DNA from: Dehalococcoidia bacterium
GTDB lineage: Bacteria; Chloroflexota; Dehalococcoidia; Plut-88900
Length of the DNA: 64,000 nucleotides
Reading direction: 5' to 3'
Assembly (NCBI GenBank): GCA_965197645.1
Contig: OZ240219.1
Span: 960,001 to 1,024,000, forward strand
Shown here: positions 33,356 to 52,159 of the stretch, piece by piece
Layout: every line of letters starts with the position of its first letter
Position numbering within the stretch: position 1 is the stretch's first letter
Position numbers and translations under genes: made by a program
Notes under the pieces: generated by a model
Told to the model about the DNA's origin: nothing
Databases searched by the model: none
The model's input: only the letters and a program-made list of their open reading frames with translations

Positions 33356-33430
33356 GCCAACGTAGCTCAGCGGCAGAGCGGGGTCTTCATAAGGCCTAGG
33401 TCGTAGGTTCGAATCCTACCGTTGGCACCA
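33356..33430 (+). tRNA. tRNA-Met(CAT), elongator type (Ile2 not excluded)
   Basis: GCCAACG/CGTTGGC acceptor stem, TTCATAA anticodon loop, GTTCGAATC T-arm, encoded CCA. Confidence 0.9.
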
Positions 33431-33450
33431 CTATCGGTGGGTACAGACTA

Positions 33451-33518
33451 CGAGGTGGGCACAGGGACGAAGCCCCTTTGCGAGAGCCTCAGAGCCTGCC
33501 GAAGGGGTGTTCCTCAGA
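33451..33518 (-). repeat. short palindromic repeat (same family as 23887-23967)
   Basis: Minus strand TCTGAGGAACACCCCTTCGGCAGGCTC...GCAAAGGGGCTTCGTCCCTGTGC. Confidence 0.55.
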
Positions 33519-33589
33519 TACAAACTCAACGGAGAGGCGAGGTAGAAGAGGCACAGGCCACGATATCAGAGTAATGTACAGTCCCTCCG

Positions 33590-33666
33590 GGGCGGTTAGC
33601 TCAGTTGGTGAGAGCGCGCGCCTCACACGCGCGAGGTCGCAGGTTCAAGTCCTGCACCGCCCACCA
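33590..33666 (+). tRNA. tRNA-Val(CAC)
   Basis: GGGCGGT/ACCGCCC acceptor, CGCGC-CT-CAC-AC-GCGCG, GTTCAAGTC, CCA. Confidence 0.96.
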
Positions 33667-33701
33667 TTGACAATGGAGCATTAGCAGAGACATTAGATAG
33701 C

Positions 33702-33788
33702 GCCGAAGTGGCGGAACGGCAGACGCGCTACGTTCAGGGCGTAGTGCCCCTTGCGGGCGTGTGGGTTCAAATCCCACCTTCGGCACCA
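33702..33788 (+). tRNA. tRNA-Leu(CAG)
   Basis: GCCGAAG/CTTCGGC acceptor, CTACG-TT-CAG-GG-CGTAG, long variable arm, CCA. Confidence 0.96.
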
Positions 33789-33862
33789 GCTCGAAAAAAG
33801 CATAGACGCTTCTGAAAATCACAAGATAGAGACAGTATCAAAGCAGTCATCGATTTCTTTAC

Positions 33863-33939
33863 GCGCTTGTAGCTCAGATGGATAGAGCGCGGCCCTGCGG
33901 AGGCCGAGGTCGTGGGTTCGAGCCCCGCCAAGCGCGCCA
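33863..33939 (+). tRNA. tRNA-Arg(GCG)
   Basis: GCGCTTG/CAAGCGC acceptor, CGGCC-CT-GCG-GA-GGCCG, CCA. Confidence 0.95.
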
Positions 33940-33957
33940 CCTTGACAAACGGACTCC

Positions 33958-34035
33958 GGGCGGTTAGCTCAGTTGGTTTAGAGCGCCTGCTTTACACGCA
34001 GGAAGTCGGGGGTTCGAGTCCCTCACCGCCCACCA
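33958..34035 (+). tRNA. tRNA-Val(TAC)
   Basis: GGGCGGT/ACCGCCC acceptor, CCTGC-TT-TAC-AC-GCAGG, CCA. Confidence 0.96.
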
Positions 34036-34344
34036 GCCTTAGTTATGCGGGCTCCACGGCTTCATGGGTTGATTCCTGACGGTTCGGCCCACTTTGCCTT
34101 TCGACCAGCCATTCGTTCGATCACAGAGATGATGAAGAATGAGTGACCATCAAGTAGAGCGCCTCGCCAAGCTCATCGGTCTCCAGAAGGTTTCGTCAAC
34201 TAGAGGAAATATGACAGCCAGTTTGATTGCCAGTACCGGGTGGCCCTGCGGGCTGCGTGGAAATGGCAAGGGATACTGGCTCTTCGCCACCGCGGGCGGG
34301 CATATCATCTTCATCCAATAGTCGCTATTTCGAAAGGGGGGTTC

Positions 34345-35382
34345 ATGCAACTCCGCAAACTATCCAACGGGCTGAAGGCCGCGTACCGTGGGTCGGACGT
34401 CGCCAGTCGTGTGCAACACTTCGATGGATGGACCGACAGAGCGCTCGCGCGGGATGTCGGCGCGACAGGCTACGATCACACCGAAACCGTCAAGGAATAC
34501 TACGACCTTTGCGGCGAGTTCATGGTGTTCGGCTGGGGCGAATCTCTGCACTTCGCCCCGCTATCGCCTCAGGAGAGCTTGGAGGAGTCCAAGACCCGGC
34601 ATCAGCGACTGATGATCGCCAAGCTGGAGTTGCGCGAGGGCATGAGGGTGGTAGATATCGGGTGCGGGATCGGCGGGCCGATGCGGCGTGTCGTCCGGGA
34701 CGCCGGTGTGAGGGTCGTAGGGGTCAACAGCAATGAAATCCAGCTGGACAAGGCGAAATCGTTGAACGCCGAGGCGGGGCTCGACCACATGGTCGACTAC
34801 CTCGCGTGCAGCTTCATGGACATGGGTGCCATCGCGGACGGCACGTTCGACCGGGGCTACGCGATCGAATCGACGTGTCACGCGCCGGATAAGGCTGGCG
34901 CGTTCGCCGAGATTTACCGCGTGCTGAAACCCGGAGCCCTTTTCTGGTGTCAGGAAATGTGCATGACGGACAAGTTCGATTCCAACTACAATCGGCACCG
35001 GGCAATCAAGCAGGACCTGATGCGCGGCATCGCGCTCCAGGATATCGCAAGGATGGGAGAGGTGAACCGGGCGCTCGAAACGGCCGGATTTCAGCTCATC
35101 GAGGGAATGAACCGGGCGGTCGGGGAGAACGGTCCGACCACGCCGTGGTATCGGCCCATGGAGACCCGGCGCAGAACGCTGGCCAATAGCCTGCACAGGG
35201 TGCCGATGGGCCGCAAGGCGTTCATCTGGGCATCCAAGCTGGCCGAGGTGTTCAGGGTGTTCCCGAAGGGCTCCGCGGACGTCGTTAGGCTGATGGACCA
35301 GACTGCCAACGCCTTGGTCGCGGGCGGCAGGGCCGGGATCTTCACGCCGTTGTACTGTTGCCTGGCTCGCAAACCGCTCTGA
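34345..35382 (+). CDS. sterol 24-C-methyltransferase (SMT/Erg6-like) homolog
   Basis: YYD...F..FGWGESLHFA (region I), VDIGCGIGGP (II), IESTCHAP (III), EIYRVLKPG (IV), C-terminal PWY.P...P.G.....L..GG..GIFTP.Y...ARKP sterol-MT tail. Confidence 0.85.
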   Translation: MQLRKLSNGLKAAYRGSDVASRVQHFDGWTDRALARDVGATGYDHTETVKEYYDLCGEFMVFGWGESLHFAPLSPQESLEESKTRHQRLMIAKLELREGMRVVDIGCGIGGPMRRVVRDAGVRVVGVNSNEIQLDKAKSLNAEAGLDHMVDYLACSFMDMGAIADGTFDRGYAIESTCHAPDKAGAFAEIYRVLKPGALFWCQEMCMTDKFDSNYNRHRAIKQDLMRGIALQDIARMGEVNRALETAGFQLIEGMNRAVGENGPTTPWYRPMETRRRTLANSLHRVPMGRKAFIWASKLAEVFRVFPKGSADVVRLMDQTANALVAGGRAGIFTPLYCCLARKPL

Positions 35383-35579
35383 CAGGCTGCGGAAGAGAGG
35401 GTTTTCCCGGTGACCAGACCCGTCTTCTCGAATGCGCAACGGCAAATATTGAGGCCGGACTGCATCTCCCCGCTGGTTAAAGGAAGTGCGCCCGCCACGC
35501 TTGAGAGATTACTTGCGCCTATTTAGGGTGGCGTGTCCATTTCCTTACATTTGGACTTCCAACCGAAAAGTTCGCAATT

Positions 35580-35722
35580 GAGCTTGTCTCAAAAGTACGG
35601 ACGTCTTAATCCCAACCACCCGCCCTCGGAAGGTTTTGTAGCTGGGGGAACATCCCCCAGGCCCCTTGCCAGAGGGAAGTTTCCCTCTGGACTCCCTCAA
35701 AGCAGGGTTCTGAGACAGGCTC
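35580..35722. mobile_element. 143-bp MITE-like element, copy 2
   Basis: GAGCTTGTCTCAAAA...TTCTGAGACAGGCTC flanked by AATT on both sides. A few mismatches to copy 1. Confidence 0.88.
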
Positions 35723-36147
35723 AATTCGGTGCGCCCCGGCCCACCAGTTCATGCATACACCGGCATCGTCGGTCATGCCCGCATATCAATCGTGCACAGG
35801 TGCTCTCTCTATAGCCGGCAATTTCCAGAAAAGGCGAGAGTGACTGCCTCGCTACCACCGGTGAACCGGGAGAGGGTAAGGTAATCTCCTAAGGATGCAG
35901 CAGAGTCGGCCAGTCACCTCTTCCCATCCCCGCGATCCCTTGCCGATTAGCGGAAATTCCTGGTGGTTGATGAAGCCGGACAGGGGACGGCACTGTTCCA
36001 GAGAGAGTCGTTGCATCCCGGACGCACAGGCCAGCCTGTGCCGGATGAGCACAACTCCTAGCGGCTCAAAAAGAGGAACACATTGAGCCGGGTCTTTATT
36101 CTAGGAGCCGACTACCTCCAATGCTTGAGAAGCACGGTTGACAGGGT

Positions 36148-36642
36148 CTAGAGGCAGTCTGCGTCGGCGAGGATTTCTCGGGTAGCGGGAGACAGCTCAT
36201 CCTCAGTACGGTTAACTTCTTCCTCTAATGCCGCCAGCTCGTCCTCCATCTCCGCTATTTCGTCTTCGAGTTCCGCCATTTTGCTCATCAACTCTAGTAA
36301 CTTAGCCTCGTCTTCTGCGTCGGATTTTTCAAAGTCCTGCATCAGGTCCACGAGTCCCGTGTCTTCCAGAGCGTCTAGTGTTGTTTGAAGGGACCTGACT
36401 CTAACCTCGTGGAATTCCTCTAACTCCTCCGGTGGGTTCCACCCCTTTATCTCGGCGAGAGCGTCCTCCGCGGCGTCGAATCCAGCAGAGAATTCTTCAT
36501 CCGAGATTTCCAAGGCCTCCATGCGGGTACCTAGTGTTTGACAGGCGTCTGCATATTCCTCGACAGTCATTCTAGGGGCCCCTCCACACGCGACCATTGT
36601 TGTAACAAACACCAGCGCCAAAGCGATCAAAACTTTGGACAT
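36148..36642 (-). CDS. acidic helical lipoprotein of unknown function
   Basis: Signal MSKVLIALALVFVTTMVAC lipobox, PPEELEEFH motif, very acidic coiled coil. Confidence 0.75.
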   Translation of the reverse strand: MSKVLIALALVFVTTMVACGGAPRMTVEEYADACQTLGTRMEALEISDEEFSAGFDAAEDALAEIKGWNPPEELEEFHEVRVRSLQTTLDALEDTGLVDLMQDFEKSDAEDEAKLLELMSKMAELEDEIAEMEDELAALEEEVNRTEDELSPATREILADADCL

Positions 36643-37033
36643 GGTTGTCTCCTTCTCCACGGGACTTGGGTAAGGCTTGAGAGAAGCATCCAGAACGACT
36701 AGAACGGCGAGGCTATACTACACTGATGTAATAGTAGTGTGAACCAACGGTGATAATCATCCCCTCTACCGCATGACTTACTGTGATTGCTTGGTGTCCG
36801 CTCAGATAGGCAGCAAGTCCGCAGGGGCCTACCCAGCGCGGCCCACCCTCTTCCTGATATCGGGGCTTCCTCTGCGAAAAAGTCGCCAATCGGTGCGCCT
36901 TGGCCAACCATGCGACCCCAGTGTTCGGTCTCGTCCGGGGTTCAAGCGTAACAATCAGGTGCTTCCCATGACCCGGACTGTGACGATGTCCACGCCGTGA
37001 AACTTTTGGTGACGCACTGCGGAAGCAAGGACT

Positions 37034-37307: not shown

Positions 37308-40300
37308 CTAGCCTCGATTGCCATCGTCTGTAATGACTAGCATGTTTGCTCGCAAGGACAGCCGCCTCGCCTTCCGAAGCCGTTCGATGCCCTCGCTCAA
37401 TCCACGGTCGATTTGCTGTCCTGTCCGCCGCCAGCCGAATTGACGGGCCGTCTCGCGAATGAGGTCACCTTGCTCTATGCCAAACGACGCTTTGGCGACG
37501 ATCAGCAAGCCCTCATCGATCTCGGATGATGCCACGCGGTCAATCGGGCGTTTGGCGTCACGCCTTGGCCGAAGCTGCTCAACACTTTGGGCCTGAACCA
37601 GGAAATGTCCAGTCTTGTCGCGCGGCTGATTGAGGAGGCGTTCAATCGCTTGCTCGACCCGCTCACGGATTCGTTTCCCTGCTTTAGCGGCTCCATACGT
37701 GGTGCGCACCCGATCAATGATTGTGTCTATGTGAACGGGTTGCTCAACGGAAATGACGGCCCGCACCAAGGCTGATAGTTCACTCAACGGGACATAGAGC
37801 AGGTCGCCTGTACGAGCCTGCTCTTCGAATTGGCGGTACTCATCGAAGAGCAGGGCCGGGGTCGGCGATGCTGGCGGGCCGTCTGGTTCTGTTGATGCAG
37901 AGGCGATGGGAGGCAACTTATCGAAACCGGGATTGGCGGGTGCAGGTGGAGGCTCCGACCGATGAGAGCGCGCCCGTTGGAGCGCCTGTTCAATGGCGAC
38001 AATCTCCGTCTCAGGATCTCGGACCCACGCTGTCGACCACACGCGGTGAATGCGCCAACCGAGCCCTTCTAGCACTTGCTGGCGCAACCAATCACGGTCG
38101 CGCGCAGTAGTCGAACTGTGGTATGTAGCCCCATCGCACTCAATGCCGAGATCGTATCGCTCGCCGTCCTCAGACCCGATTGCGAGGTCTATACGGTAAC
38201 CCGAGATGCCGACTTGCGCGTCAACCCTGTGCCCGCGTTGCCTTAGTGCGGCAAACACCGCCTCCTCGAACGGGCTCTCCGGCTCACCTACTCCGGTGAC
38301 CTCAGACTCGAAGGCACGCTCGGGGTTGCGCACGTATTCGAGATAGCGGCGTAGCTGGCGGGCGCCAGGCTGCTGCGACCTGATGTCCTCAGCGCGCAGC
38401 GAGTGTACAACCGTCATTGACCTGCGCGCCCGGGTCACCGCAACATTGAGCCTCCGTTCGCCTCCATCTCTGTTGATTGGACCGAAGTGGTTAGGCACGG
38501 CGCCTGCCGGGGTCGGCCCATAACAGATGGAAAGTACCATGTGATCCCGTTCGTCACCCTGGACGTTCTCCAGGTTCTTGACGAAGAAGCGCTCAGCCCC
38601 TTCTTCGCTGAACCGTTGGTCCAAATGACGATAGAGCAAACGACGCTCCTCGATGAGGGCCTCTATCAGGTCTGCCTGGGGGCGCGACAGCGCGACAACG
38701 CCAATGCTTTCGTCGGCAGGGTGGGTTTCCATGAGTTCGAACACGATGTCGGTGACACGCTCGGCCTCTTCCCGGTTGGTTTTTGTGCGGCCCATGTCGT
38801 AGGTCGCGTTCGGAAGGTACACGTCGCGGACCGCGACGTCCGCCGGGTCGGGGCCGGGAAAGGTAAGCAACCGGTTTTCGTAGAAGGCGTGGTTGGAGAA
38901 TCGGATGAGGCTCTCCGAGCGGCTTCTATAGTGTACGGAGAGGTATCGCTCGGCGAAGCCGGCCCCAACTTGCCCAACCATGACGTCGAGAATGCTCTCG
39001 CGGCCTCTGAAGCTGTCGTCATTATCGTCATCGTCATCCCAGTCATCGTCACTGTCGAGACCGGTCCTGAAGAACGTGGTAGGTGGGAGCTGCAATCGAT
39101 CACCGACGACGATCGCTTGACCCGCCCGGTCGATGGCGGGGAGCGCGTCCTCAGGCAATACCTGGGAGGCCTCATCGAAAATCACAACGTTGAACTCTAG
39201 ATGATCGCTCGCCAGTGGACCTGCTGGCAGATACTGGCTGACAGCGATCGGACTCATCAGGAAACACGGCTTCAGCGTTTGTAACAAATTTGGGATGCGT
39301 GCGATGAGCTTCCGTACGGGCATCTGCCTGCGCCGCTTCGAGAGCTCGCCGTAGAGAATGCCCAGTTGACCTGCTTGTAGAAGAGTGGAGTATGGGTCCG
39401 GATACTTTGCAAAGACACGTTCTCGCACGCGCTGGCGCGCAGCAAAGGGGAAACGCTCATCGAGTTCCCGGAACTGGGCGCCCACACCCTCGTGGTCAAT
39501 CCTGCTGAACCCGCGTAATTCCGTCTCGGCTTCGTAGAGCTCCTCCAGCCATGCAATGTAGATTCGACGGAGGACAATCCCGGGTACATCCTCCGCCTGA
39601 TCGGTCGCGGCGCGGAGTGCTCCGGCTGATCCAGGGCCGAGCCGCTCGTCGAGTTCTCGCACTGCATCGCGGTATTCGACCCACCCGGACGCGTCGCTCG
39701 CGTGTTCGTGGAGGTCTGTCCTCCATGCCTCCAGGTCGGCTAAGGGTGGCGCTTGCCAGGAGTCCCAACTCGTAGTCGCGACATTGAACCGCTCATCAAG
39801 GACACTGAGTCTCTGCGAGTATGCGGCGTTCTCCGTGCTAAGGGACTCCGCACGTTCTTCGTACTCCGCGCTTGTTCGCGGGTCGACAGCATGACCCGCT
39901 AGCATGTCGCCGACCGGAACGTCTGCCTCGTCGAGGAAGTTAGCAGTCCAGTCGAGGGCATACGAGACGGCATCCCAATCGGTTGCCTCGCGCTCGAAGA
40001 AGGCGCCAAAGTCCTCGACAAGCGCAGGCGCGAGCCGTTCATCCTCTTCCGTCACGGCCATGAGCCGAAGGCCGTCCTCAATGAGTTGAGTCAGCGCATC
40101 GAAGTCAGCGGGCGGTGTGACGAGGATGCGGTATATCTCTGCCGTGGCGTCCCGTATACGGCGTAATGGCACAATCGCACGCCGTGCGGCATCACCTGCT
40201 CTGGCGACTTCCAGATTCGACGCCACCAGAGGCTCATGGTCGAGTGCACTCGCCGCGCGCTTGTACCGCATCAGCGCATCCTCTAATGGCTGGCTCGCGG

Positions 40301-41336
40301 ACTCAAGCACGAGACGGCGGTCGCCAATAACCTCCTCGGCAAGTAACTCCCGCAGGACAGCGTCATCGCTGCGCCATTCACCGAGGATGCCCCTCAGCGC
40401 CATGAGGTCAGAGAGCACACGCTCCCACTCGGTTTCCAGGCCGCCGAAGCGTGTACCCAGTAACTCTCGCAGTCGTGGCTCCATCTCATGCCATCGCTCG
40501 CGCCTCCGCTTCACGCCCATAGCCAACTCGACGACAGCGAGGGATTCATCAAGTGAGAGCTTGCGGGGCGATTTGAGCTGTCCACGGACTGTGCGTTGGT
40601 CGCGTCGATATGTTCTTCGGATATGGCGCAGGAAGCTCTGGTGGTCGGTTCGGTAGCGAATGAGCATCTCCTCGTCCACTCGCTCTACAAGCCCGTCGGA
40701 GAAGTCCTCACCAAGCCTGTCTTCGTCGTCGTCGAGGTGTCCAAGCAATGCTCGTGCATCCTCCGAATCGCGCTCCAACTCCTCAGTCGCCGGGACCGTG
40801 AGCCATTGCGCCGGAATCGGTTCGAGGTCTAGGATGCTAGCTGTCAACGCCGATGCCTGATCGAGTTGGCCCAGTGTGCGAAGCTGCGAGTCCGCGAGAG
40901 CGGCACCGATGGCTTCCGCGCTCGCCTTCAACAGATCGAGCGCCGCTTCGAGTTCATTGGCCTTCGCCAAGAACTCGCTGGGATTCTTGCCCAGCGCGGT
41001 TCGCCAGCCCATTCCGGCCAACTCTTCTATCGCTTCTCGTTCGTCTGGCGAGAGCACCAGCGCGCTGGCGATAGCTCGATAGTCGATTGTTGGGGGCGAA
41101 GCTCCCAACCAACCGTCCAGTGTCTGCTCTAGGCGACGTCGCTCGCGCTGCTGCTTTGCTTGATCTCGCGCCAACTGACGCAACCTCGCTACAGCGTCGT
41201 AGTTGAGCCACATGCGAGGAACAGCCGGCGCTAGGCTGAGCGCGGCGCCCTGTAGTCCGACCGCCAGTACGGTGGACGGAGGACAGGCTTCCTCGGGTTC
41301 AAGACGGATGGGCTGGTCGGTGCTCCCGGCGCTCAA
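37308..41336 (-). pseudogene. N-terminally truncated SF1 helicase-Vsr-like nuclease-DUF3320 protein (DUF4011/Hhe-like family)
   Basis: KPCFLMSP, IFDEASQV, VGD..QLPPT, HYRS, VQGDERD, RLNVAVTRAR, ESPFE...YRIDL...IECDGATYHS...RDRD, DUF3320 tail. No Walker A or DUF4011 in the ORF. Confidence 0.75.
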
Positions 41337-41714
41337 CGTTCAGCCATTCTCCAGACACCTCCCTGGAAGCGAAGGTTTCCGGGGATGCTTGCCGGCAATT
41401 GCCCTGGAGGGCAAGGCCTTTTCGAACCTTACTGATTCGGGCTGGATGCGTCAATAGTCGGCCGGGGTCATCAACCACATCTCGAAAACGGTTCTGTCTG
41501 CATTGAGTATAGTCCCATCATTTTAGGTGGTAGCCAATGCCGTAGCATCAGACCTGATAATCGCAATAGCTCGGCTAGACGAGGTCAGAGTCTTCACCCA
41601 TCTCTTCTACAAGCTCCAGCCTCTACGATCCCAGGAGGGGATACGGGCTGATATACTGAGCCCGGAGCAGGAGACAGAGGGGTTGTCGACGGGGATTATG
41701 TGGGGTGTTCAGGA

Positions 41715-43166
41715 ATGAGCGAAGAAATCAAAGCTCAAATCGATCCACGAGATTCCTTAGTACTGAAGTTGCCCGAACTGGATGTTTCTTCGGAGGAACC
41801 TTGGGGTGATGATGTGCTGGACCGGCAACAGATTGCTGGCAGGCTAACAAATCTCGTTCGGGATCAGTCAACTCCTTTGACATCAAGCATCCACGGTCAC
41901 TGGGGGACCGGCAAGACGTTTATGCTCAAGCGTTGGCAGAAAGACTTGGAGGGGCAGGGATTCAAAGCCATCTACTTCAACGCGTGGGAAGACGATTTCT
42001 GCGATGACCCGTTCTTAGCTATGATTGGCCAGCTGGCTGAACACTTCAAGGGCGACAGGTTTAAGGAATTGACTCGCAAGGCAGTTGAAACTGCAATTCC
42101 GTTGATCAGAGAGAATCTCTTAGGCGTTCTGAGGGCTACGACGGGAGTGACGGTTAGACTAGACGACCAGCAGCAGGGAAACAAGACCCCGCTGGACGCG
42201 TATCTCGAACAGAGGGCTACGAAGGATAGCTTCAAGAACCAACTTGGACAACTGGCCGCGGAGGTGGCCCGTGAAACCGGTCATCCATTGGTGTTCATCG
42301 TTGACGAGCTAGACAGGTGCCGACCTACGTTCGCCATTGAACTACTTGAGAGGGTCAAGCACTTATTCGACGTTCCTAATTTGGTGTTCGTCTTTGGAAT
42401 AAATCGAGACGAGCTTTGCAAATCGCTTCAATCAATCTACGGAGAGATCGACGCCGGTGTGTACCTTCGCCGCTTCTTCGATATGGAGTTTACACTACCG
42501 GAGGTAGATTCAGTAACCTTCGGTAACCATTTGGTGCAGAAGTATGGGCTAGATGAATTCTTTGGTGCGCTAAGCAAGAATACCACTCCATGGTTACCCA
42601 CCAACGAAATCTGGGTGTTGGCCCAATATTTCCCTGCCCTCTGGGGCCGTTTGGGTTTATCCCTGCGAGATATCGATTACTGTGTGAGGTCAATCGCTCT
42701 GGTTAGTAGGAACTTGGACCAACGCTATCACATGCATCCTTGGCTGCTCGGCCTGCTTATAACCCTGAAGCTCAAGAACCCAACGCTATACAAGCAGTTC
42801 ATCCAGGGCAACTGTCTTGTAAGCGAAGTCATAAATTACATTGACAGAACAGCCGCGATTAAGGAAATAGATCGTACGTCGGCACACGCACTGCTTGCAA
42901 TCGAAGCGTACCTATATCGAACAGAGGCCGGATTTGATGGTTTCGCATCCAAGGTACCAACTGCGTTGGGTCAGTTGCAGCTTCTCACAGATGGGAAGAC
43001 GTTGACACATCCGGGGTATCTATCGGAAAAGACCCAAAAAGAGGGTCTCCTAAGAGCAGGTCAATTGGTTCAAATGATTAAATCTTGGGCAAGCTTGGAT
43101 TTTATCGACGTCGTTGGCAATCTGGCGGCTCTAATTGACCTGCATCAGAATATGGTGAGAGATTAG
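41715..43166 (+). CDS. KAP family P-loop NTPase
   Basis: GHWGTGKT Walker A, YFNAWEDD, FIVDELDRCRP Walker B, LERVKHLF, YLRRFFD. Lower GC. Confidence 0.93.
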   Translation: MSEEIKAQIDPRDSLVLKLPELDVSSEEPWGDDVLDRQQIAGRLTNLVRDQSTPLTSSIHGHWGTGKTFMLKRWQKDLEGQGFKAIYFNAWEDDFCDDPFLAMIGQLAEHFKGDRFKELTRKAVETAIPLIRENLLGVLRATTGVTVRLDDQQQGNKTPLDAYLEQRATKDSFKNQLGQLAAEVARETGHPLVFIVDELDRCRPTFAIELLERVKHLFDVPNLVFVFGINRDELCKSLQSIYGEIDAGVYLRRFFDMEFTLPEVDSVTFGNHLVQKYGLDEFFGALSKNTTPWLPTNEIWVLAQYFPALWGRLGLSLRDIDYCVRSIALVSRNLDQRYHMHPWLLGLLITLKLKNPTLYKQFIQGNCLVSEVINYIDRTAAIKEIDRTSAHALLAIEAYLYRTEAGFDGFASKVPTALGQLQLLTDGKTLTHPGYLSEKTQKEGLLRAGQLVQMIKSWASLDFIDVVGNLAALIDLHQNMVRD

Positions 43167-43521
43167 GTTATGGCCCTCCGGTGTCCCCTGGCTGGGCAGG
43201 CTGTTCGACGTGATCCCGGGTACAGTGGACACCGGTCGATTCCTCCGCACCCTCTGATATACTGCTCGACATGATCCACTCCATGCAGAGGTCATTGAGG
43301 ATCATCCGAACGGCGCCTGGGCCCTGGTACGTTCGTCTGTGGCAGGTGTTCCAGAACCTGGCGATTAAGGTTCGTTGAGCCAGCCGCTGCTGCGGGCCTC
43401 CCGGGCGGCCGGGATGCTGAGCAGAGTCTCCTGAAGCTCCCAGCGGGAGCCATCCACATCACGGGCACTAGTCCCGAGGCGTATGGTCTTTGGCGCCGAA
43501 GCGCGAGTTGGAGCGAACGCG

Positions 43522-43987
43522 ATGGATGACAAAACACCCAAAAGCCCAACTGAGACCGCCGAGAACGTTGGCGAAGAGGTGGTCCTTCTCTCAGGGGGCA
43601 ACCCTCAGATAGCCAAGGCCAACGGTTATGTTCCCGTGCAGGCCTACATATCGGCGATGCCGGGATGGAAAAGCGATGTTGGGAGACGCCTCGACGACTT
43701 GATCGTGCGGACGGTGCCCAATGTGCGCAAGTCAGTGAGGTGGAACTCTCCCTGGTACGGCGTCGAGGGCCAAGGGTGGTTCCTGAGCTACCACGTCTTC
43801 AGCCGCTACGTGAAGGTGACTTTCCTCAATGGGGCATCGCTGGAACCCGTCCCCATCCGGCTCAGGCAAGGACCCGGACTCGCGCTGGGTCGACATCTAC
43901 GAAGGGGAGCTCGAGGAGGAACAGATGGCGACATGGGTCGGGCAGTCGGCCGCCCTGCCCCGCTGGCACGGTATTGACACACTGTGA
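43522..43987 (+). pseudogene. DUF1801 (YdhG-like) gene with a frameshift near 43855
   Basis: LLSGGNPQIAK...VRWNSPWYG...GASLEPVP, continuing in another frame as PSGSGKDPDSRWVDIYEGELEEEQMATWV.QSAALP.W. Confidence 0.8.
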
Positions 43988-44036
43988 AGCTCAATGATAA
44001 TAGTTCGAAACGTTATCAAACAGGATCGGGAGACTC

Positions 44037-44897
44037 ATGACTCTCCGCTTAGCGCCGCTCGATGAAAACTTCGCCTTCGAGGTGTCGGGAGTAGAGACTT
44101 GGTCAGGACTCGACGATGAGCAAGTGCGGTCGTTCGATGACGCCTGGGCCAATCAAGGGGTGCTGGTGTTCCGCCGGCAGGCGCTCACGGAGCAAGAGCT
44201 GGTGACTTTCAGCGGGCGTTTCGGCACGCCCGACGTCATCGTTCGTACCGATTGGGCCTCCCAGGACCACCCGGAAATCACGCAAATCTCTAATATGCGG
44301 AACGCCGACGGAGCTAATATCGGAGGGCTCGGGTCGGGCGAGCTGGATTGGCACACCGATCAGTCATACATGGCAGCGCCGGCGACGGGCGCCATCCTCT
44401 ATGGTGTCGAGGTGCCGGAGGACGGACCGCAGACCTACTGGGCCAACCTGCACCTCGCTTACGAAGCGCTGCCGCAAGAGACCAAGGTGAGGCTCGACGG
44501 ACGGCGTGCTATCTTCAGCTACGCCCAACGGTACAAGGACTACGAAGACGAGAATGTGCCCAGCGAAGAGATCTTGGCGCAGACGCCCGACGTGACCCAC
44601 GCACTGGTGCAGACCCATCCGACATCCGGCGCCAAGAGCCTTTACCTGGACCCGTCGACCATGATCGGGATTGAAGGCATGGACGAGGCGGAAGGCCGGG
44701 CGTTACTCGGCGAACTGACCGAACACGCCACCCAACCCGAGTTCGTCTATCGTCATCACTGGCAGCCGGGCGATCTGATCATGTGGGACAACGGCTTCCT
44801 GCTGCATCGCCGGGACGCCTTCCGCACCGATCAGAACCGCCTGCTCAAGCGCACCACCCTCCGGCTTTCATCCGAGCGACACATCGTCCCAAGCTAA
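44037..44897 (+). CDS. TauD/TfdA family Fe(II)/2-oxoglutarate dioxygenase
   Basis: WHTD.S, H.LV.THP, H.WQPGDL.MWDN...LHR, R. Confidence 0.93.
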   Translation: MTLRLAPLDENFAFEVSGVETWSGLDDEQVRSFDDAWANQGVLVFRRQALTEQELVTFSGRFGTPDVIVRTDWASQDHPEITQISNMRNADGANIGGLGSGELDWHTDQSYMAAPATGAILYGVEVPEDGPQTYWANLHLAYEALPQETKVRLDGRRAIFSYAQRYKDYEDENVPSEEILAQTPDVTHALVQTHPTSGAKSLYLDPSTMIGIEGMDEAEGRALLGELTEHATQPEFVYRHHWQPGDLIMWDNGFLLHRRDAFRTDQNRLLKRTTLRLSSERHIVPS

Positions 44898-44949
44898 CAG
44901 ATGATTCCCTGCTACCTACGAGAACACGTGCTGAAAGCAAAGCCGCCCG

Positions 44950-47900
44950 TCATAGCAACAGCTCCCCGACCGCCTCCTCCACGGTTTTGCCCTCCTTTGA
45001 CTCCCGCAGCCATTTCCGTATCTCCCGCCGGGCGACGGTAACCGACACGTCATCCCGGGCCTGGCGCAGCAGGGCCAGCTGCTTGGCCGCGCCCTGGGAG
45101 GCCGCTTCTCCTGCCTGGGATATCCGGACATGGAGAGCGTTGCCCGAGTCAAACTCCGGGATGGGAAGCTTCCACAAGTGCTTGTGCAGGTGCCGCTCGC
45201 CAAACTGGCCCTTGGGCATTAGCGAACGCACCGCGCCATAGAGAATCTCGCTGTTGATTATTGCTAGTAAATAGTTGGCTTCGTTGGCATCCCTGCAAGC
45301 AACCCAGAACAGGAGGTTTTCAACCAGATCAGCACCATTTGACAGGATGGCGGCAGTTGGCTGGCCGGAGCTCGTATATGCCAACCTAACTGGGCGATCA
45401 TTAGAGTTTACCTGCCATTCCAATTGCGACGACAGCTTCCCGTAAAAGTCCAACTGTCCCAGCAGGTCCAGTTTGTTGGCCGCCGCCTTGTGCTCCTCCC
45501 ACAGGCGACTAACAATTCGCCAGCGGTCACGCATTCGCTGTCCCAATGCCCCTAGTTTGAGGCCTCCCACCCCCTCGGTATCGGCGGGTAGGCGGGCATC
45601 GCCGCGCTTGAAAGGCAGGACCGCTTTCAACGGGTCCAGGGTCGCGTAGGGGACGACGGTCTCGCCCAAGTGGACGTCGTGGACGTGCTGGGTGCCGATA
45701 GTCTGTGTGGTGATGGAGGTTAGGTCCAGACTATTCCACGGTTTCTTGTCATGAACCCCTCGGCGCGGGTTCATGGTAACGGTCTGACCGGCCTGAACGA
45801 TGGCGGAACTCTCCGTCTCATTTACGAAAAACAACACCCTTGGGAATATCGTGGCCCCGTTCCGGGATAGCGCCCCGTAGGGTGAGCCACCGCCAACCGA
45901 CGTATCGATGATAGGAGCGAGCTCCCGGCGCACGTCGTCCGAGCCCGTCTCCCCCAGCCACCGTTCTACCTTGCCTTTCAGGGGAGTCGCCTTACCGACC
46001 AGGCCCTGGTACTCGGCAAAAACCACCGACGCCGGGACGGGGAAGAAGTTGTTGGGATCCAGCTTCTCCAGGTCCCACGCCGTCTTGTAGCGGAAGTCCA
46101 CCGTCAGCGTTCGGAGTCTTGAAGACCATGTGCCGGTGCGCCACTTGGAATGTTGACCCGTCTGAAGGGCGCTGTGGGGCATCACCATGCCTATCGCTCC
46201 GCCGTCCTTCAGGTACAGATCGACGCTTCGGGCAAAGAACAGCCCGGCCACGTCCTGATGGGTAGCGTACTTGCCTCCGTTCCATATGTCATAGGTGCCC
46301 TTACTCAACCTCTCCAACTGGGTGCGCAGCGTACTGACGGTCTGGTTGTAGTTGATCCACGGCGGGTTGCCGATAATCACGTCCACCTTGCTTAGAGAGA
46401 GGGCCACGGGGCGCACGAGGTTGCGGGTGTAGTAGGCCCAGATGTGGTTGCGGCCCTGAGCATGCAACCGCTGTATGGCGTCGATGGTCTCCCGCAGGGT
46501 TTGCCGCTCTCCGGGTTCGGTGATCTGGTGGTCGTCTAGGGCCAGGTGGGGGTCGGCGCCCCTCTCGATGGCCTCGGCCACGTCGCTCATCAGCGCGTCG
46601 AAATCCTCGGTCCGATTCACCAGGCTCACGGGAAAGACCAGCTCCGTGTTCTCCTCGTCTTCGACCTCTACGGTGACGTTGTGCTCGGCGAACAGGTCGC
46701 CGGTGCGGAACCGGAGCTGGAGGGCGTCTCCCAGGTAGACGGGAACGGTGATGTTGCCAGCGAAGCCGTCCTCGACGGCTGCCTGTATAGCGGGCTGGGC
46801 CGCCAGCACCCAGGCGGCGCGGGCGAGGTGCACCGCCACCGGGTGAACGTCGATGCCGGAAACGGAGATGCGAAGCCACTCCAACACTTGTGTAGGGTTA
46901 AGGTCGATTTCCTTGGCGGCCTCGATGAGGTGGGTGACCGCCTCAGCCAGGAAGGTCCCCGAGCCGCAGGCCGGGTCCAGGACGGACTGGCCCACCGGGG
47001 CTGTCACCACCTCCCGCACGATGGCACGCGCCAGCCAGTCCGGTGTGTTGTACTCTCCCAGCTGGCGCCGTTCGTCGGGCGGTATCACCGTCTCGTAGAG
47101 GATGGAGGCAACGTCGGTGGAGGCCTTCTGCCAGTCGAACCTGGCTACGCGCCTGGCGACCGTTTTCATGAGCGGCAGACCTCCTTCGACCTCGGTGGGC
47201 CAGGCAAAGAAGTCCGACTCAACGACCCCTTGAAGGCCGGTCTTGCTTTGGAAGTAGCGCCCGCGGAGCAAGTCAGCGGGATCGGTTTCCGCCAGGCCCT
47301 TGATGTCGCCCCCGAAGGAGGCCTGCACCACCATGCCTATGACGGCGGTCAGGTAGGTGTGCCGGACGAACAGGTCGTCCAGTTCGGGGCTGGACCTAGC
47401 GATCTCGCCCAGAGCGGCCTTGAGCAGGTTCTCCCACAGCTGTCTCTTGACCTTGACGGTGCCGGAGCTTGCGTACTGGTCGTAGATGGCACTGAGGGCT
47501 GTTATGTCCCGCTCATAGGACGGGGCCGTAGAGCCGAAGTTCTGTTCGATAGCGGAGCGGGATGGCTGTTTGGCCGGCTCTGCGGAGAGGGCATGGTCGC
47601 GGAGCCACTCGAAGAGGGTGATCCAACGGTCCGCATCCTCCAGCGTGAAGGCGTAGGGAGGGGTCGTCCTGATTGCACCGGCATTGGGCCAGCGCAGGAG
47701 CCAGTGCCTGCCGTCGGTGAGTATGCCCATGCGCACCCGGCCCTGCTTCTCCGACTGCTCCAGGTAGTCGTCGAGCTGCCGGACGTAGTTTGGGTTGGGG
47801 TTGAAGCCTCCCGCAGTGCCGATCCTGCGCTTGAACTCTATGAACGTGTCGAGGGCGGTGAGATCCACGGCGCTGCGCGAACCCTCGGCGGGCGGATTCT

Positions 47901-48135
47901 CCTGACGGATATCATCGCTGCTTGCCAGCCCGGTAGCAATGAGGAAATCACGCACCGCGCTGGCAATGTCTGCCTCCCGCACGCCATTGTCGTACCGCCG
48001 TAGAATGTTGGCAGCAGCCTGAGCGTACCGGGGGTTGTTGTAGTCTATCTGAGTGGACACTTCGGCTCTCTGGTTAGTTTGGGTATTTCCGAGACGGGGG
48101 AGGCCATCATATAGCGCCAGATTATCGAAGTCCAT
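44950..48135 (-). CDS. type IIG/IIL-like fused restriction endonuclease-N6-adenine methyltransferase
   Basis: N-terminal D...IEFK nuclease motif and GILTDG..W, GEYNTPDWLA, LDPACGSGTF, GNPPW, C-terminal TRD. Confidence 0.88.
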   Translation of the reverse strand: MDFDNLALYDGLPRLGNTQTNQRAEVSTQIDYNNPRYAQAAANILRRYDNGVREADIASAVRDFLIATGLASSDDIRQENPPAEGSRSAVDLTALDTFIEFKRRIGTAGGFNPNPNYVRQLDDYLEQSEKQGRVRMGILTDGRHWLLRWPNAGAIRTTPPYAFTLEDADRWITLFEWLRDHALSAEPAKQPSRSAIEQNFGSTAPSYERDITALSAIYDQYASSGTVKVKRQLWENLLKAALGEIARSSPELDDLFVRHTYLTAVIGMVVQASFGGDIKGLAETDPADLLRGRYFQSKTGLQGVVESDFFAWPTEVEGGLPLMKTVARRVARFDWQKASTDVASILYETVIPPDERRQLGEYNTPDWLARAIVREVVTAPVGQSVLDPACGSGTFLAEAVTHLIEAAKEIDLNPTQVLEWLRISVSGIDVHPVAVHLARAAWVLAAQPAIQAAVEDGFAGNITVPVYLGDALQLRFRTGDLFAEHNVTVEVEDEENTELVFPVSLVNRTEDFDALMSDVAEAIERGADPHLALDDHQITEPGERQTLRETIDAIQRLHAQGRNHIWAYYTRNLVRPVALSLSKVDVIIGNPPWINYNQTVSTLRTQLERLSKGTYDIWNGGKYATHQDVAGLFFARSVDLYLKDGGAIGMVMPHSALQTGQHSKWRTGTWSSRLRTLTVDFRYKTAWDLEKLDPNNFFPVPASVVFAEYQGLVGKATPLKGKVERWLGETGSDDVRRELAPIIDTSVGGGSPYGALSRNGATIFPRVLFFVNETESSAIVQAGQTVTMNPRRGVHDKKPWNSLDLTSITTQTIGTQHVHDVHLGETVVPYATLDPLKAVLPFKRGDARLPADTEGVGGLKLGALGQRMRDRWRIVSRLWEEHKAAANKLDLLGQLDFYGKLSSQLEWQVNSNDRPVRLAYTSSGQPTAAILSNGADLVENLLFWVACRDANEANYLLAIINSEILYGAVRSLMPKGQFGERHLHKHLWKLPIPEFDSGNALHVRISQAGEAASQGAAKQLALLRQARDDVSVTVARREIRKWLRESKEGKTVEEAVGELLL

Positions 48136-48488
48136 TGATTGACAATAACTACCCTACGCTTTAGCCTAAGAAACCTGGATCACAGGGGGAGGAGTGGTAG
48201 AGCGCAGGACCATCTCGGCGCATTCCCACGCAGGTCGTCCGGATAACCTGCACTATAGGTTTCCGCCGGCATATTGCGACAGGAGGCCCAGGGTCGAGAA
48301 GATAGACTCCACCGACCGGTCCATCATCGACAGTCAGCCGGCTGGGCCCGTCTAGACGTTGAACAGAGCCGTTCCGATACTATCGGGACGGCTCTCGCAG
48401 TTTTGCGCCGAAATCGTGGCTTACCGCAAGTACGATGATCCTTCTTAGTTGAACGTGACCTGCTCCTGACCGATAACGGGAAAGAGAA

Positions 48489-50435
48489 ATGGGCCGATAT
48501 ACGGTTAGACGGATCCTGCTCATTGTTCCCACCCTCTTCGTGGCCTCGCTCTTTCTTGCCCTCATGCTGAGGGTCCTGCCCGGAGATGCCATCGCCGCGG
48601 CCGGCAGCAGCGGGCGAGGCGCGGGTACCGGGGGCGATGAGGTTGGCGCCAGCATCGCCAGGGCCAGGCTGGGCCTGGATAAGCCCTTCTACGTCCAGTA
48701 CATTCGGTGGATCGTGGGGTGGCCCGGGAGGGAAGGGGTGGTCTACCACACCGCCGATGATGGGTCATCGTGGCGCGGCATAGGCGGACAGTCGGTAAAG
48801 CCTATCGCCGAGGCCGAGTTCTTGACTCCCACCCTCGGTTGGGGGCTTAGAGAAAACGTAATCTCCTTTACCAAAGACGGGGGCCGGCAGTGGCTCAACC
48901 AGCACGTAGTAGGCAACAACCTGAACGATCTCTTCATACTGGACGAGAGTAATGTCTGGGTCGTAGGCGATGGCGGGACCCTCTTCCGTACTACCGAGGG
49001 GGGCAAGCGCAAGATGACCGCCGGGGGAGTGGGGCTTGCTACATGGCTGCCCCAGGACAGCGACGCCACTACCAATCTCAGGGGCGTGGCCTTCGTAGAC
49101 CTCGATTACGGGTGGGTAGTCGGCGATGGGGGCACGATCATCCACACCGTCGACGGCGGCGAGACCTGGCAGCCCCAGAGCTCAAACACCGATGTCCGGC
49201 TATCATCGGTAGTCTTTGCCGATGCCAACCGTGGGTGGGCGATAGGAGACGGAGGGACCGTTCTTCGCACCTCGGATGGGGGAGTGAACTGGCAATTACA
49301 CACAGGCCTCTCCGAGAAGAACCTTCACGCTCTGGCCCTGGTCGATACGCGCACTCTCTGGGCCGTGGGAGACGGCGGCGCCGTGCTTCAGACCACGGAT
49401 GGGGGCTCTACATGGGTGCCCAGGACCATCCGGGAAGGCCTTCAGGAGAGTCTCACGGGAGTGGCCTTCGGAGACGTCTCCAACGGGGTGATCGTAAGTG
49501 CCGGGGGTACCGTGTACACCACGATGGACGGCGGTAACACGTGGGCCGAGCAGGAGATCCTCATAACTCGCCAGGAGGAAGATGTCACCATAACCGAAGG
49601 CCCTATCACTACGCCCCTCCAGGACGTGAGCATGGTCGTCAGCGGCACCGGTACAGTCCGCATCTGGGCGCCGGCGGTCGAGACCGACTGGGAATGGGGT
49701 CTGTTGGGTGGAAATCTGGGGGAACGTTTCCGGCCAGCCGGCAGGATGGTCGCCAGCGAGATAAAGAGGACCCTGGGCCCCAGTCTGCAGCTGATGATCA
49801 TGAGTATGATCATTGCCATGGTTGTGGCAGTGCCCATCGGGATCTTATCGGCCATACGTCAGGACACATGGGGCGATTACGCAGGCCGGACCGTGGCGAT
49901 CAGTGGCCTTGCCGTCCCGACTTTCTGGGTCGGGATGATGGTGATACTGCTGCCCAGCTACTATCTCGACTGGGTCCCTCCTCTTATCTACGTTTCCTTC
50001 TTCGACGATCCCGCCGGAAATCTGTATTTCTACATGCTCCCCTCTATAGTAGCCGGCATTCCCATAATGGCGGAGATCATGCGCATGACCCGGAGCATGA
50101 TGCTGGAGGTGCTGCGTCAAGACTACATCCGGACGGCCTATTCGAAAGGGCTCAGAGAGCGGCTCGTGATCTACCGGCACTCCCTGAAGAATGCCATGAT
50201 ACCTGTGGTTACCATGGTGGGGGTCACCGCTGCGTACCAGCTGGGGGGCCTGGTGATCATAGAGCAGATATTCACCATCCCGGGCACGGGCAAGTTGATG
50301 CTGGGCGCCATCGAAAACAGGGACTATCCGATGATACAGGGAGGCGTCCTGTTCCTGGGCTTCGTGGTTATCGTCATGAACCTGGCCGTGGACCTGGTGT
50401 ACACCTGGTTGGACCCGAGGATTCGCTACGAGTGA
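48489..50435 (+). CDS. DppB/OppB-type ABC permease with an inserted BNR/Ycf48-like beta-propeller
   Basis: RRILL..PTL...LPGD, LGLDKP..VQY..W, then 7 T.DGG..W repeats, then LGGNLG..., P.FW, RMTRS.MLEVL.QDYIRTA.SKGL, H.LKNA, LDPRIR. Confidence 0.88.
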   Translation: MGRYTVRRILLIVPTLFVASLFLALMLRVLPGDAIAAAGSSGRGAGTGGDEVGASIARARLGLDKPFYVQYIRWIVGWPGREGVVYHTADDGSSWRGIGGQSVKPIAEAEFLTPTLGWGLRENVISFTKDGGRQWLNQHVVGNNLNDLFILDESNVWVVGDGGTLFRTTEGGKRKMTAGGVGLATWLPQDSDATTNLRGVAFVDLDYGWVVGDGGTIIHTVDGGETWQPQSSNTDVRLSSVVFADANRGWAIGDGGTVLRTSDGGVNWQLHTGLSEKNLHALALVDTRTLWAVGDGGAVLQTTDGGSTWVPRTIREGLQESLTGVAFGDVSNGVIVSAGGTVYTTMDGGNTWAEQEILITRQEEDVTITEGPITTPLQDVSMVVSGTGTVRIWAPAVETDWEWGLLGGNLGERFRPAGRMVASEIKRTLGPSLQLMIMSMIIAMVVAVPIGILSAIRQDTWGDYAGRTVAISGLAVPTFWVGMMVILLPSYYLDWVPPLIYVSFFDDPAGNLYFYMLPSIVAGIPIMAEIMRMTRSMMLEVLRQDYIRTAYSKGLRERLVIYRHSLKNAMIPVVTMVGVTAAYQLGGLVIIEQIFTIPGTGKLMLGAIENRDYPMIQGGVLFLGFVVIVMNLAVDLVYTWLDPRIRYE

Positions 50436-50484
50436 TGACTCTAGCGTTGTCACTGCACTGAAGGAATAGAGTCTCGAGGAAGCG

Positions 50485-51489: not shown

Positions 51490-51582
51490 CTAGCAGCGTG
51501 TCTCTGCCTGACCAATACGGTATAGCGAACCTGTACATTGGTGAAGTAAGATGCGTGAAAGCTGGGAGCCGCATGGCGAACG

Positions 51583-52155: not shown

Positions 52156-52159
52156 GCCT

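Follow-up and report, generated by a model that had tools for sequence, protein, structure and literature searches.

A divergent sterol methyltransferase-family gene with a rebuilt sterol pocket, carried as a solitary cassette behind tRNA genes of a Dehalococcoidia bacterium

Results

The methyltransferase gene and its protein

The stretch of DNA analysed here, called the window throughout, comprises 64,000 nucleotides (positions 960001-1024000) of the single 3,211,320-bp contig C1 of a Dehalococcoidia bacterium (genome label G000). At positions 34345..35382 of its plus strand the list of open reading frames (ORFs) and Pfam place a coding sequence for a 345-aa methyltransferase of the sterol C24-methyltransferase (SMT) family. 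This protein (P0001) and its relatives, whose genome or contig loci are labelled L005-L109, are the subject of this work. The frame is intact and runs from an ATG at 34345 to the stop codon at 35380-35382. Upstream it stays open as far as a GTG at 34240, a longer start that the homologues do not use. Because the homologues among the matches listed are mostly 343-354 aa long, the ATG at 34345 was preferred over this GTG. Three nucleotides before the ATG the plus strand reads AAGGGGGG (34334..34341), a G-rich run that may act as a Shine-Dalgarno element.

Pfam assigns residues 103-201 to Methyltransf_11 (62.3 bits) and residues 288-344 (35206..35376, plus strand) to the Sterol_MT_C domain PF08498 (56.5 bits at a cut-off of 21.7). 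A profile search of the whole genome returned the same Sterol_MT_C match with 57.8 bits and found it in no other gene of this bacterium. In BLASTP the protein aligns to Cladosporium Erg6 with 33% identity over 333 residues (208 bits, E 1e-68), a likeness far beyond chance, and it shares 40% identity over the full length with a rice SMT1-like (cycloartenol-C24-methyltransferase-like) protein. The gene thus belongs to the SMT family and combines a class I S-adenosylmethionine (SAM) methyltransferase core with a Sterol_MT_C tail. None of the NCBIfam equivalogs scored above its cut-off, and a PDB search gave no true SMT among the solved structures; the best solved relatives cover the methyltransferase core only (RebM-like 3bus, 82.6 bits, residues 47-200).

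A first-pass annotation, made from the sequence of the window, had called the gene an SMT homologue with all four SMT signature regions and the C-terminal tail. Both statements hold, given the Sterol_MT_C score above cut-off, the full-length Erg6 match and the presence of every quoted motif within 34345-35382. Region I (residues 57-70, 34513..34554, plus strand) reads G-E-F-M-V-F-G-W-G-E-S-L-H-F and contains EFMVFGWGESLHF. Region II, the SAM motif D-I-G-C-G-I-G-G-P within VVDIGCGIGGP, is intact (residues 104-112, 34654..34680, plus strand), Region III is YAIESTCHAP and Region IV is LKPGALF. The SAM-site residues D104, G106, G108, G111, P112, E175 and G197 of the window protein are all present.

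Phylogeny and distribution

A word-indexed protein search gave 2283 matches, the best 120 of which were inspected. These 120 clusters share 78-91% identity with the window protein at 99-100% coverage. When the 50%-identity representatives were searched exhaustively, 9200 matches were obtained at E <=0.001, of which 250 lay at <=1e-30. Named anchors among the matches are the rice protein, Erg6 of Penicillium and Cladosporium, and Mesostigma, together with other bacterial SMT groups from Acidimicrobiia/Poriferisocius, Dadabacteria and Polyangiaceae. We computed a quick maximum-likelihood tree, which is unrooted, from 131 rows. Besides the window protein it contains 24 of 80 genome loci, picked so as to cover the range of labels, and 106 of 150 listed representatives, the other 44 having been set aside because their length fell outside 300-480 aa.

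The window protein falls inside a clade of 28 rows (SH-aLRT 99), which together with three unnamed sister rows forms a group of 31 rows with a support of 100. The stem of this group measures 0.58 substitutions/site and sets it apart from the rice, fungal and algal rows. The phylogeny that had been proposed as a check on the annotation therefore gave a divided answer: the gene lies firmly inside the SMT family and not among non-sterol methyltransferases, the grouping that had been named as speaking against the assignment, but it is separated from the fungal, plant and algal rows by a long stem. The epithet "eukaryote-type", if it is to mean a recent eukaryotic origin, had to be given up, as the gene sits in a separate bacterial clade that is common to sponge-symbiont lineages.

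In contigs taken from one genome per species, 170 stretches encode a relative, and the clade was counted on the best 80 of them. By label, 68 of these loci belong to Chloroflexota, 6 to Actinomycetota (including Candidatus Poriferisocius) and one each to Nitrospirota, Verrucomicrobiota, Latescibacterota and Pseudomonadota, with 2 unlabelled; metagenome-assembled genomes (MAGs) of at least six phylum labels thus bear the clade. A metagenome scan added 22 loci on contigs with the prefixes LXNI, LXNJ and JGIcombinedJ30088, which in the papers of Brown and Welander denote metagenomes of Sarcotragus, Petrosia and Aplysina; none of the 22 lies on a contig named in the Brown papers. Among 61 genomes of the class of the window 13 carry a clade gene: the present genome, 9 of the 11 others of its family, both genomes of family f6 and the single genome of family f22. 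It was not found in the other families among these 61 genomes. Identity across phyla is far above that of housekeeping proteins, e.g. 84% for an Acidimicrobiales copy (L009) versus 51% for PanB. The clade spreads horizontally among sponge-associated bacteria.

Changes in the sterol pocket

We compared the pocket of 98 clade sequences with 100 SMT representatives from outside the clade and with seven named references. Residues are given in ERG6 numbering, obtained via the motif 84GWGxxFHF91 quoted in a preprint (10.64898/2025.12.19.695621), unless they are called window residues. Region I of the window protein differs from ERG6 by T78G, Y81M, E82V, Y83F and F89L and retains W85, H90 and F91. 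The altered reading MVFGWGESLHF of the first-pass annotation is thus confirmed, and the changes extend over the whole clade: L89 occurs in 98 of the 98 sequences, M81 in 97, V82 in 93 and F83 in 88, with T78 kept in only 8. Further changes of the clade are the replacement of a near-universal Asp by Ser at window residue 156 and of a Trp by Met at window residue 205, and a one-residue insertion. Conserved in 96-98 of the 98 sequences are Y74, W85, H90, F91, D125, G127, G129, G132, P133, G147, Q154, D189, E195, G217, G268 and W286; among these D125, G127, G129, P133, Q154, D189, E195, G217 and W286 occur in all 98 and H90 in 97, the latter count applying also to the fourth Gly of Region II.

Which of these residues matter for methylation at C-24 can be judged from published work. 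The available text of PMC6997595 describes Y81EYGWG86 as the site of aromatic residues that C-24 catalysis needs and that are absent from the nematode C-4 methylase STRM-1; the window protein reads M-V-F-G-W-G at this place and does not match the signature. In the preprint cited above 25 residues, among them T78, 84GWGxxFHF91 and L341, are invariant in all active SMTs, and 7 of 11 inactive SMTs deviate at these residues. The window protein has 22 of the 25 and departs at T78 (G), F89 (L) and L341 (M), where 20 positions were mapped by quoted motifs and alignment and the five C-terminal ones by an inferred constant offset of 24 from an F-x-P motif. Since all active SMTs of that study have F89 and all 98 clade rows have L89, none of the SMTs it showed to be active belongs to the clade. 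We conclude that the preferred acceptor is probably not one of the Delta24 sterols of canonical SMTs (desmosterol, 24-methylenecholesterol), because the Region I pocket has been rebuilt across the whole clade.

The preprint further reports that Gly at ERG6 position 249 is necessary for C30 (isopropyl) products, and that only C28 sterols were obtained once this residue had been mutated to I, L, M, F, V or C. We inferred the corresponding column, i.e. the one in which the fungal G-D-G has its Asp, on the basis of the Asp reported for yeast at position 249. It holds Ile in the window protein, Ile in 92 and Val in 6 of the 98 clade sequences, and never Gly, so that C30 (isopropyl) products are not expected. 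For C30 steranes, the relevance that had been proposed for the gene is accordingly at odds with the published rule. The related suggestion that the Region I substitutions alter the product specificity stands in part: residues tied to C-24 activity are indeed lost, but a changed acceptor, or a lack of activity on standard sterols, is no less likely than a changed product.

It is hence unlikely that the protein is a canonical C-24 SMT that alkylates Delta24 sterols of the host or the diet to 24-methyl, 24-ethyl or 24-isopropyl sterols. The full-length architecture and the intact SAM site, H90 and E195 would suit this role. According to the available text of Brown et al. 2023 (PMC10070321), 8 of 10 bacterial SMTs tested from sponge metagenomes methylate desmosterol in vitro, and a Chlamydiae SMT is active though its MAG lacks sterol synthesis. 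Phe at position 83, moreover, raises sequential methylation in one bacterial SMT (preprint 10.64898/2025.12.19.695621). Against this stand the absence of F89 and T78, both invariant in functional SMTs, the replacement of Y81 and E82 of the signature by M and V, and the Ile or Val in the column aligned to 249.

With eukaryotic SMTs (fungal Erg6, plant SMT1/SMT2, EC 2.1.1.41 / 2.1.1.143) the window protein has Regions II-IV, H90 and E195 in common; it differs by M-V-F-G-W-G-E-S-L-H-F in place of the signature Y-E-Y-G-W-G-x-S-F-H-F, by the exchanges at 156 and 205 and by the insertion. A deviant Region I or sterol-binding domain together with another acceptor is also described, in the available texts, for the C-4 methyltransferase STRM-1 (PMC6997595) and the Botryococcus triterpene methyltransferases (PMC3533583), a likeness drawn from description only; these enzymes are eukaryotic, whereas the window clade is bacterial.

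A module of partner genes around the relatives

The genomic context was scored, after clustering of ORFs, for 97 full-length clade genes in 102 loci. For 71 of the 97 the locus holds at least one of four partner types: a fusion of GPP34 with a cytochrome P450, an MMPL/HAE3 pump with a domain of the sterol-sensing type (MMPL/SSD), a Rieske oxygenase with a KshA C-terminal domain, and a flavoprotein of the FAD amine-oxidase type. A major facilitator superfamily (MFS) transporter and an LppX-like lipoprotein are often present as well. The GPP34-P450 fusion lies within 6-8 kb of 65 of the 97 genes. All four partners accompany 28 genes, the combination of P450, MMPL and Rieske accompanies 17, and one, two or another set of three accompany 26; the remaining 26 have no partner, four of them on contigs <3 kb, which are uninformative. 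No cyclase and no second SMT was found in any of the 102 loci.

The partners are not the known bacterial sterol-synthesis genes, although their best solved relatives are steroid enzymes, namely KshA for the Rieske protein (3.5e-27) and CYP51 for the P450 (7e-21). With the SdmA model the partner Rieske scores only 31 bits (cut-off 600), and none of the CYP51 models of NCBIfam matches the partner P450. This also bears on a canonical C-24 function. The bacterial C-24 SMTs (PMC10070321, in its available text; 10.64898/2025.12.19.695621) likewise combine the methyltransferase core with Sterol_MT_C, come from bacteria of sponge metagenomes with the same prefixes and occur in part, e.g. the Chlamydiae SMT, in genomes lacking sterol synthesis. 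The active ones, however, carry F89, T78 and the other 23 residues, and many are clustered with oxidosqualene cyclase (OSC), CYP51, ERG24 and sdmAB. Members of the window clade have L89, M81, V82 and usually no T78, are never found beside a cyclase, CYP51, ERG24 or SdmAB, and come from carrier genomes in which OSC is lacking (0 of 40, see below).

The GPP34-P450 fusion has been described before under the name GPP34_L and is exclusive to sponge symbionts according to the available text of PMC11706023, in the main text of which neither "sterol" nor "methyltransferase" occurs. The clade and this partner appear to be confined to sponge symbionts. In the window itself no module partner was detected among the 37 of its 53 ORFs of >=110 aa that were scanned with Pfam. 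The only GPP34 gene of the genome that we could relate to the fusion is a short one (235 aa), which lacks the P450 part and lies 1.58 Mb away.

Sterol and triterpenoid genes of the carrier genomes

Sterol-synthesis genes were lacking among the scanned ORFs of the window, as the first-pass annotation had stated. The genome-wide check for squalene epoxidase and OSC that it had recommended was carried out by a profile search of the whole genome (estimated completeness 94.5%, contamination 6.35%). Neither a squalene-epoxidase domain nor an OSC was found. The sole triterpene cyclase of the genome reaches 841.9 bits with the squalene-hopene cyclase model, whose cut-off is 431, but only 242 bits with the OSC model (cut-off 851); it has a DxDD motif (D-I-D-D) and adjoins HpnC. 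Two P450 genes are present, neither of which is similar to the module P450 at E 1e-5. A search for ERG4/ERG24 gave no match in this genome, nor did it in the control genomes, so that this negative carries no weight. The bacterium is thus unable to make sterols by the known route and able to make squalene and hopanoids. The idea that an exogenous sterol serves as the substrate, put forward from the window alone, was judged reasonable.

Out of 80 carriers 40 were chosen for being chromosome-level or large. None of the 40 has a match above the OSC cut-off. A cyclase-type match of 82-279 bits on the OSC model, always below the cut-off, was obtained for 25 of them, a range that includes the 242 bits of the hopene cyclase described above; the other 15 have no match. 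SQS_PSY genes occur in 39 of the 40 carriers, mostly as tandem pairs. They are found in 8 of 14 control genomes too. We had considered the SQS_PSY distribution as a test for squalene-derived acceptors, and it was dropped as non-discriminating, these genes being common in bacteria generally. Nine chromosome-level carriers (G017, G018, G020, G021, G023, G025, G027, G033 and G036) have no cyclase match, yet carry tandem SQS_PSY pairs that are HpnC/HpnD-like, which suggests squalene-type products without hopanoids in these nine.

These data also concern an acceptor made by the bacterium itself, i.e. methylation of squalene, a hopanoid or another squalene product in the manner of the Botryococcus enzymes that act on squalene. 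HpnC and the squalene-hopene cyclase, the SQS_PSY genes of nearly all carriers and the cyclase-type matches of the 25 are in line with it. The available text of PMC3533583 describes the methylation of squalene and botryococcene by SMT-like enzymes whose sterol-binding domains are variant, and the module pump weakly resembles the HpnN family (116.7 bits; cut-off 751). Yet the 15 carriers without a cyclase match are for the most part chromosome-level, so that hopanoids are not the general substrate, the SQS_PSY genes say little in view of their presence in the controls, and the SMT is unlinked to hpn genes in the 102 loci. The apparent confinement to sponge symbionts would also fit a host-derived cue or substrate better. 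We therefore regard a self-made triterpenoid acceptor as improbable.

A solitary cassette behind tRNA genes

In the window the gene stands alone behind a row of five tRNA genes, which ARAGORN places on the plus strand at 33356..34035 (Met-CAT, Val-CAC, Leu-CAG, Arg-GCG, Val-TAC). The last of them, tRNA-Val(TAC) at 33958-34035 (plus strand), abuts the cassette and ends 310 nt before the ATG. Comparison by blastn delimits a horizontally shared single-gene cassette at 34002..35594 (plus strand), with an upstream flank of at most about 340 nt and a downstream flank of about 200 nt. Positions 34002-35582 match L005 at 97.5%, 34164-35594 match L006 and L007 at 93.4%, and 34346-35575 match L008 at 90.9%. 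The non-coding tail (35383..35594, plus strand) moves with the solitary cassette and is common to L005-L008 only; homology to L009, a copy embedded in a cluster, ends at the stop codon. Contigs from DNA runs part from the window at about 35596. The likeness at the DNA level is limited to 1.4-1.6 kb, and the surrounding genes have no family in common between the loci.

The protein identities to L005, L006, L008 and L009 are 98, 91, 86 and 84%, compared with 60, 60, 54 and 51% for PanB. A DNA match of 97.5% next to a PanB identity of 60% indicates that the cassette moved recently between distant genomes. L006 and L007 are near-identical cassettes (dS 0.02) that lie about 110 kb apart in one contig in different contexts, the L007 cassette behind a seryl-tRNA synthetase gene and tRNA-Ala(GGC). 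Homology between the window and L005 begins in the T-arm of the tRNA at 34002, where L005 has tRNA-Ala(CGC) instead. The tRNA genes end 310 nt (L005, Ala-CGC; window, Val-TAC) and 487 nt (L007, Ala-GGC) upstream. A tRNA gene within 1 kb upstream is a feature of these three copies and of 0 of the 95 other clade genes.

The first-pass annotation had spoken of a tRNA-linked island. This is correct in so far as tRNA genes immediately precede the gene and the stretch is variable and rich in defence genes, but what moves is a single-gene cassette, and neither an integrase nor a repeat of the tRNA end was detected. Integrase and transposase families were absent from the scanned ORFs of the window and from 28 ORFs flanking the L005-L008 copies. 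With up to 3 mismatches allowed, the window contains the 31-nt 3' end of the tRNA a single time, with no far att repeat, and a search for terminal or flanking repeats, a promoter and a terminator-like site of the cassette gave nothing beyond chance. Remnants of the partners in the flanks were sought by relaxed tblastn for MMPL and P450; the hits were noise, with no remnant at the protein level.

Traces of a module are present outside the window. At C1:15229-18192 (L109) the genome carries intact LppX-like and MFS genes, whose products are 55% and 83% identical to those of L042. Between 15.5 and 18.2 kb the other partners are reduced to fragments (Rieske aa 10-47 of 358, MMPL aa 603-685 of 827, flavoprotein aa 335-376), and there is neither an SMT nor a P450. 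A 164-aa ORF without a Pfam match spans these fragments. Two further genes, the short GPP34 gene and an orphan MMPL/SSD gene whose product shares 49% identity with the module pump, lie elsewhere in the genome among unrelated neighbours; a GPP34-P450 of the module type, a KshA-like Rieske and an FAD oxidase were not found.

Proposed function and its alternatives

We propose, with a probability of roughly 55%, that the window gene, intact and acquired by horizontal transfer, encodes an enzyme of a divergent SMT clade whose substrate is a lipid of sterol type that the cell does not make. By homology the enzyme would use SAM to methylate an olefin of a polycyclic or isoprenoid lipid, and a deprotonation would complete the reaction; the retained SAM site, H90 and E195 suggest that this family chemistry has been kept. 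The substrate would be most likely a sterol-type lipid, because OSC is absent from the carriers and because oxygenases of steroid type and a pump with a sterol-sensing domain are the usual partners, and it would probably come from the sponge host, i.e. it would be modified rather than made. The window copy would have arrived recently as a solitary 1.4-1.6-kb cassette behind a tRNA gene in a genome whose resident module is decayed and fragmentary. This explanation and the three alternatives to it are not fully exclusive.

Several observations weigh against the proposal. The substrate class is assigned from homology and from neighbouring genes which the present genome lacks, and we know of no enzyme of the clade that has been assayed with a positive result. 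The SQS_PSY genes of the carriers, as well as HpnC and the hopene cyclase of the present bacterium, leave room for a self-made triterpenoid acceptor, and the habitat of the bacterium is itself deduced from its relatives and from run labels. Other points concern the state of the window copy. The dN/dS values (Nei-Gojobori) are 0.30 between the window and L005 (12 differences) and 0.35-0.67 among the other pairs of the window copy, L005-L008 and L009. Of the 156 positions with a conservation of at least 95% among 61 embedded copies, six are changed in the window protein (window residues E119D, G202C, T236R, D256N, Y324L and F339C), and five of the six changes are common to L005 only among the five nearest copies. 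D256N affects an Asp that all seven reference SMTs have, with Asn recurring in 7 of the 98 clade rows; a literature search gave nothing usable on a role of this Asp (about ERG6 276). In L005, positions 6001-6003 read ATC where the window has its ATG start. Finally, contigs from three RNA libraries of one study, with a sponge metagenome label, contain pieces of the ORF that are >=99% identical (0-2 differences in 92-218 nt), but their depth of 2-5 is no proof of transcription. The assembled RNA-run contigs have no cover at 34212-34325 and 35808-36700, gaps that carry no weight. An in-frame GTG 105 nt upstream of the ATG position is conserved and might serve as start in L005.

The state of this copy raises the alternative of a passenger, i.e. 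a cassette that is intact but drifts towards loss and performs no useful work since its partners are gone. The fragmentary module and the absence of module-type partners from the rest of the genome would agree with it, as would the higher dN/dS inside the solitary sub-clade, the six changes at conserved positions and the lost start codon of the nearest copy, L005. On the other side, the frame is open in all copies compared, including the five solitary ones, dN/dS stays <1 in every pair and is inflated at short divergences, and it falls to 0.21-0.26 between the same six copies and the embedded copy L012, which indicates constraint. The recent spread between far-apart genomes and the duplication within one contig (L006, L007) speak for retention, and the near-identical pieces in the RNA libraries point the same way. 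A passenger status thus has a small likelihood.

A bolder version of the proposed function, which we consider a long shot, is that the enzymes use an acceptor site unlike that of all characterised SMTs and that sponge symbionts tailor host sterols into "sponge" biomarkers. One example would be the C-26 methyltransferase that has long been sought, which would turn Delta25(27) sterols, (epi)codisterol among them, into 26-methyl sterols of the aplysterol type, precursors of 26-methylstigmastane; another would be a C-4-type ring methylase of 3-ketosteroids similar to nematode STRM-1. The window gene would then be a mobile stand-alone copy of such an enzyme. The loss of Y81, E82 and F89 with a retained core, the steroid-type partners and the lack of OSC in the carriers are compatible with this, as is the statement, in the available text of Brown et al. 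2023 (PMC10070321), that 26-SMTs remain undiscovered.

These considerations matter for the use of 24-isopropylcholestane and 26-methylstigmastane steranes as evidence for the earliest animals, the reading of which is already complicated by bacterial SMTs of sponge symbionts. Of all SMT-like genes in the sponge-type genomes sampled, that of this clade is apparently the most frequent, with at least 120 protein clusters that are >=78% identical and 170 genome stretches with a relative. It departs from the sequence criteria published for C-24 activity and is not accompanied by a cyclase in any locus, and scoring it as "ERG6/SMT1" in metagenome surveys would overstate the bacterial potential for 24-alkyl sterols. 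Should the clade modify host sterols at a different position, it would represent a new tailoring enzyme with a direct bearing on biomarkers. What the window adds is that the gene can travel and persist alone without the module.

Other genes of the window

Upstream of the five tRNAs lie housekeeping genes, namely carAB, pyrB, the FBPase gene, panCB, surE and a DinB-like gene. Directly downstream of the cassette, at 36148-36660 on the minus strand, a gene encodes a 170-aa predicted lipoprotein that is very acidic, with a Glu/Asp/Leu-rich, coiled-coil-like body and no Pfam match. Genes of defence type occupy the stretch from 37308 to 53227. They encode a 1342-aa helicase-nuclease (AAA_11/AAA_12, MTES_1575, DUF3320), a KAP-family NTPase, a GmrSD-type nuclease and a 1061-aa Eco57I/MmeI-like (type IIG-like restriction-modification) methylase-endonuclease, and genes for TauD and ABC permeases lie between them. 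Within this stretch, at 48489-50435 (plus strand), a 648-aa ORF joins a YCF48/BNR-like beta-propeller (PSII_BNR, 87.9 bits) to a BPD_transp_1 permease, which is either an unusual fusion or an over-long call. A second methyltransferase of lipid olefins, a 412-aa protein of the cyclopropane-fatty-acid/mycolic-acid-synthase type (Pfam CMAS, 313.5 bits), is encoded at 7531-8769 on the plus strand in a context unrelated to that of the SMT-like gene.

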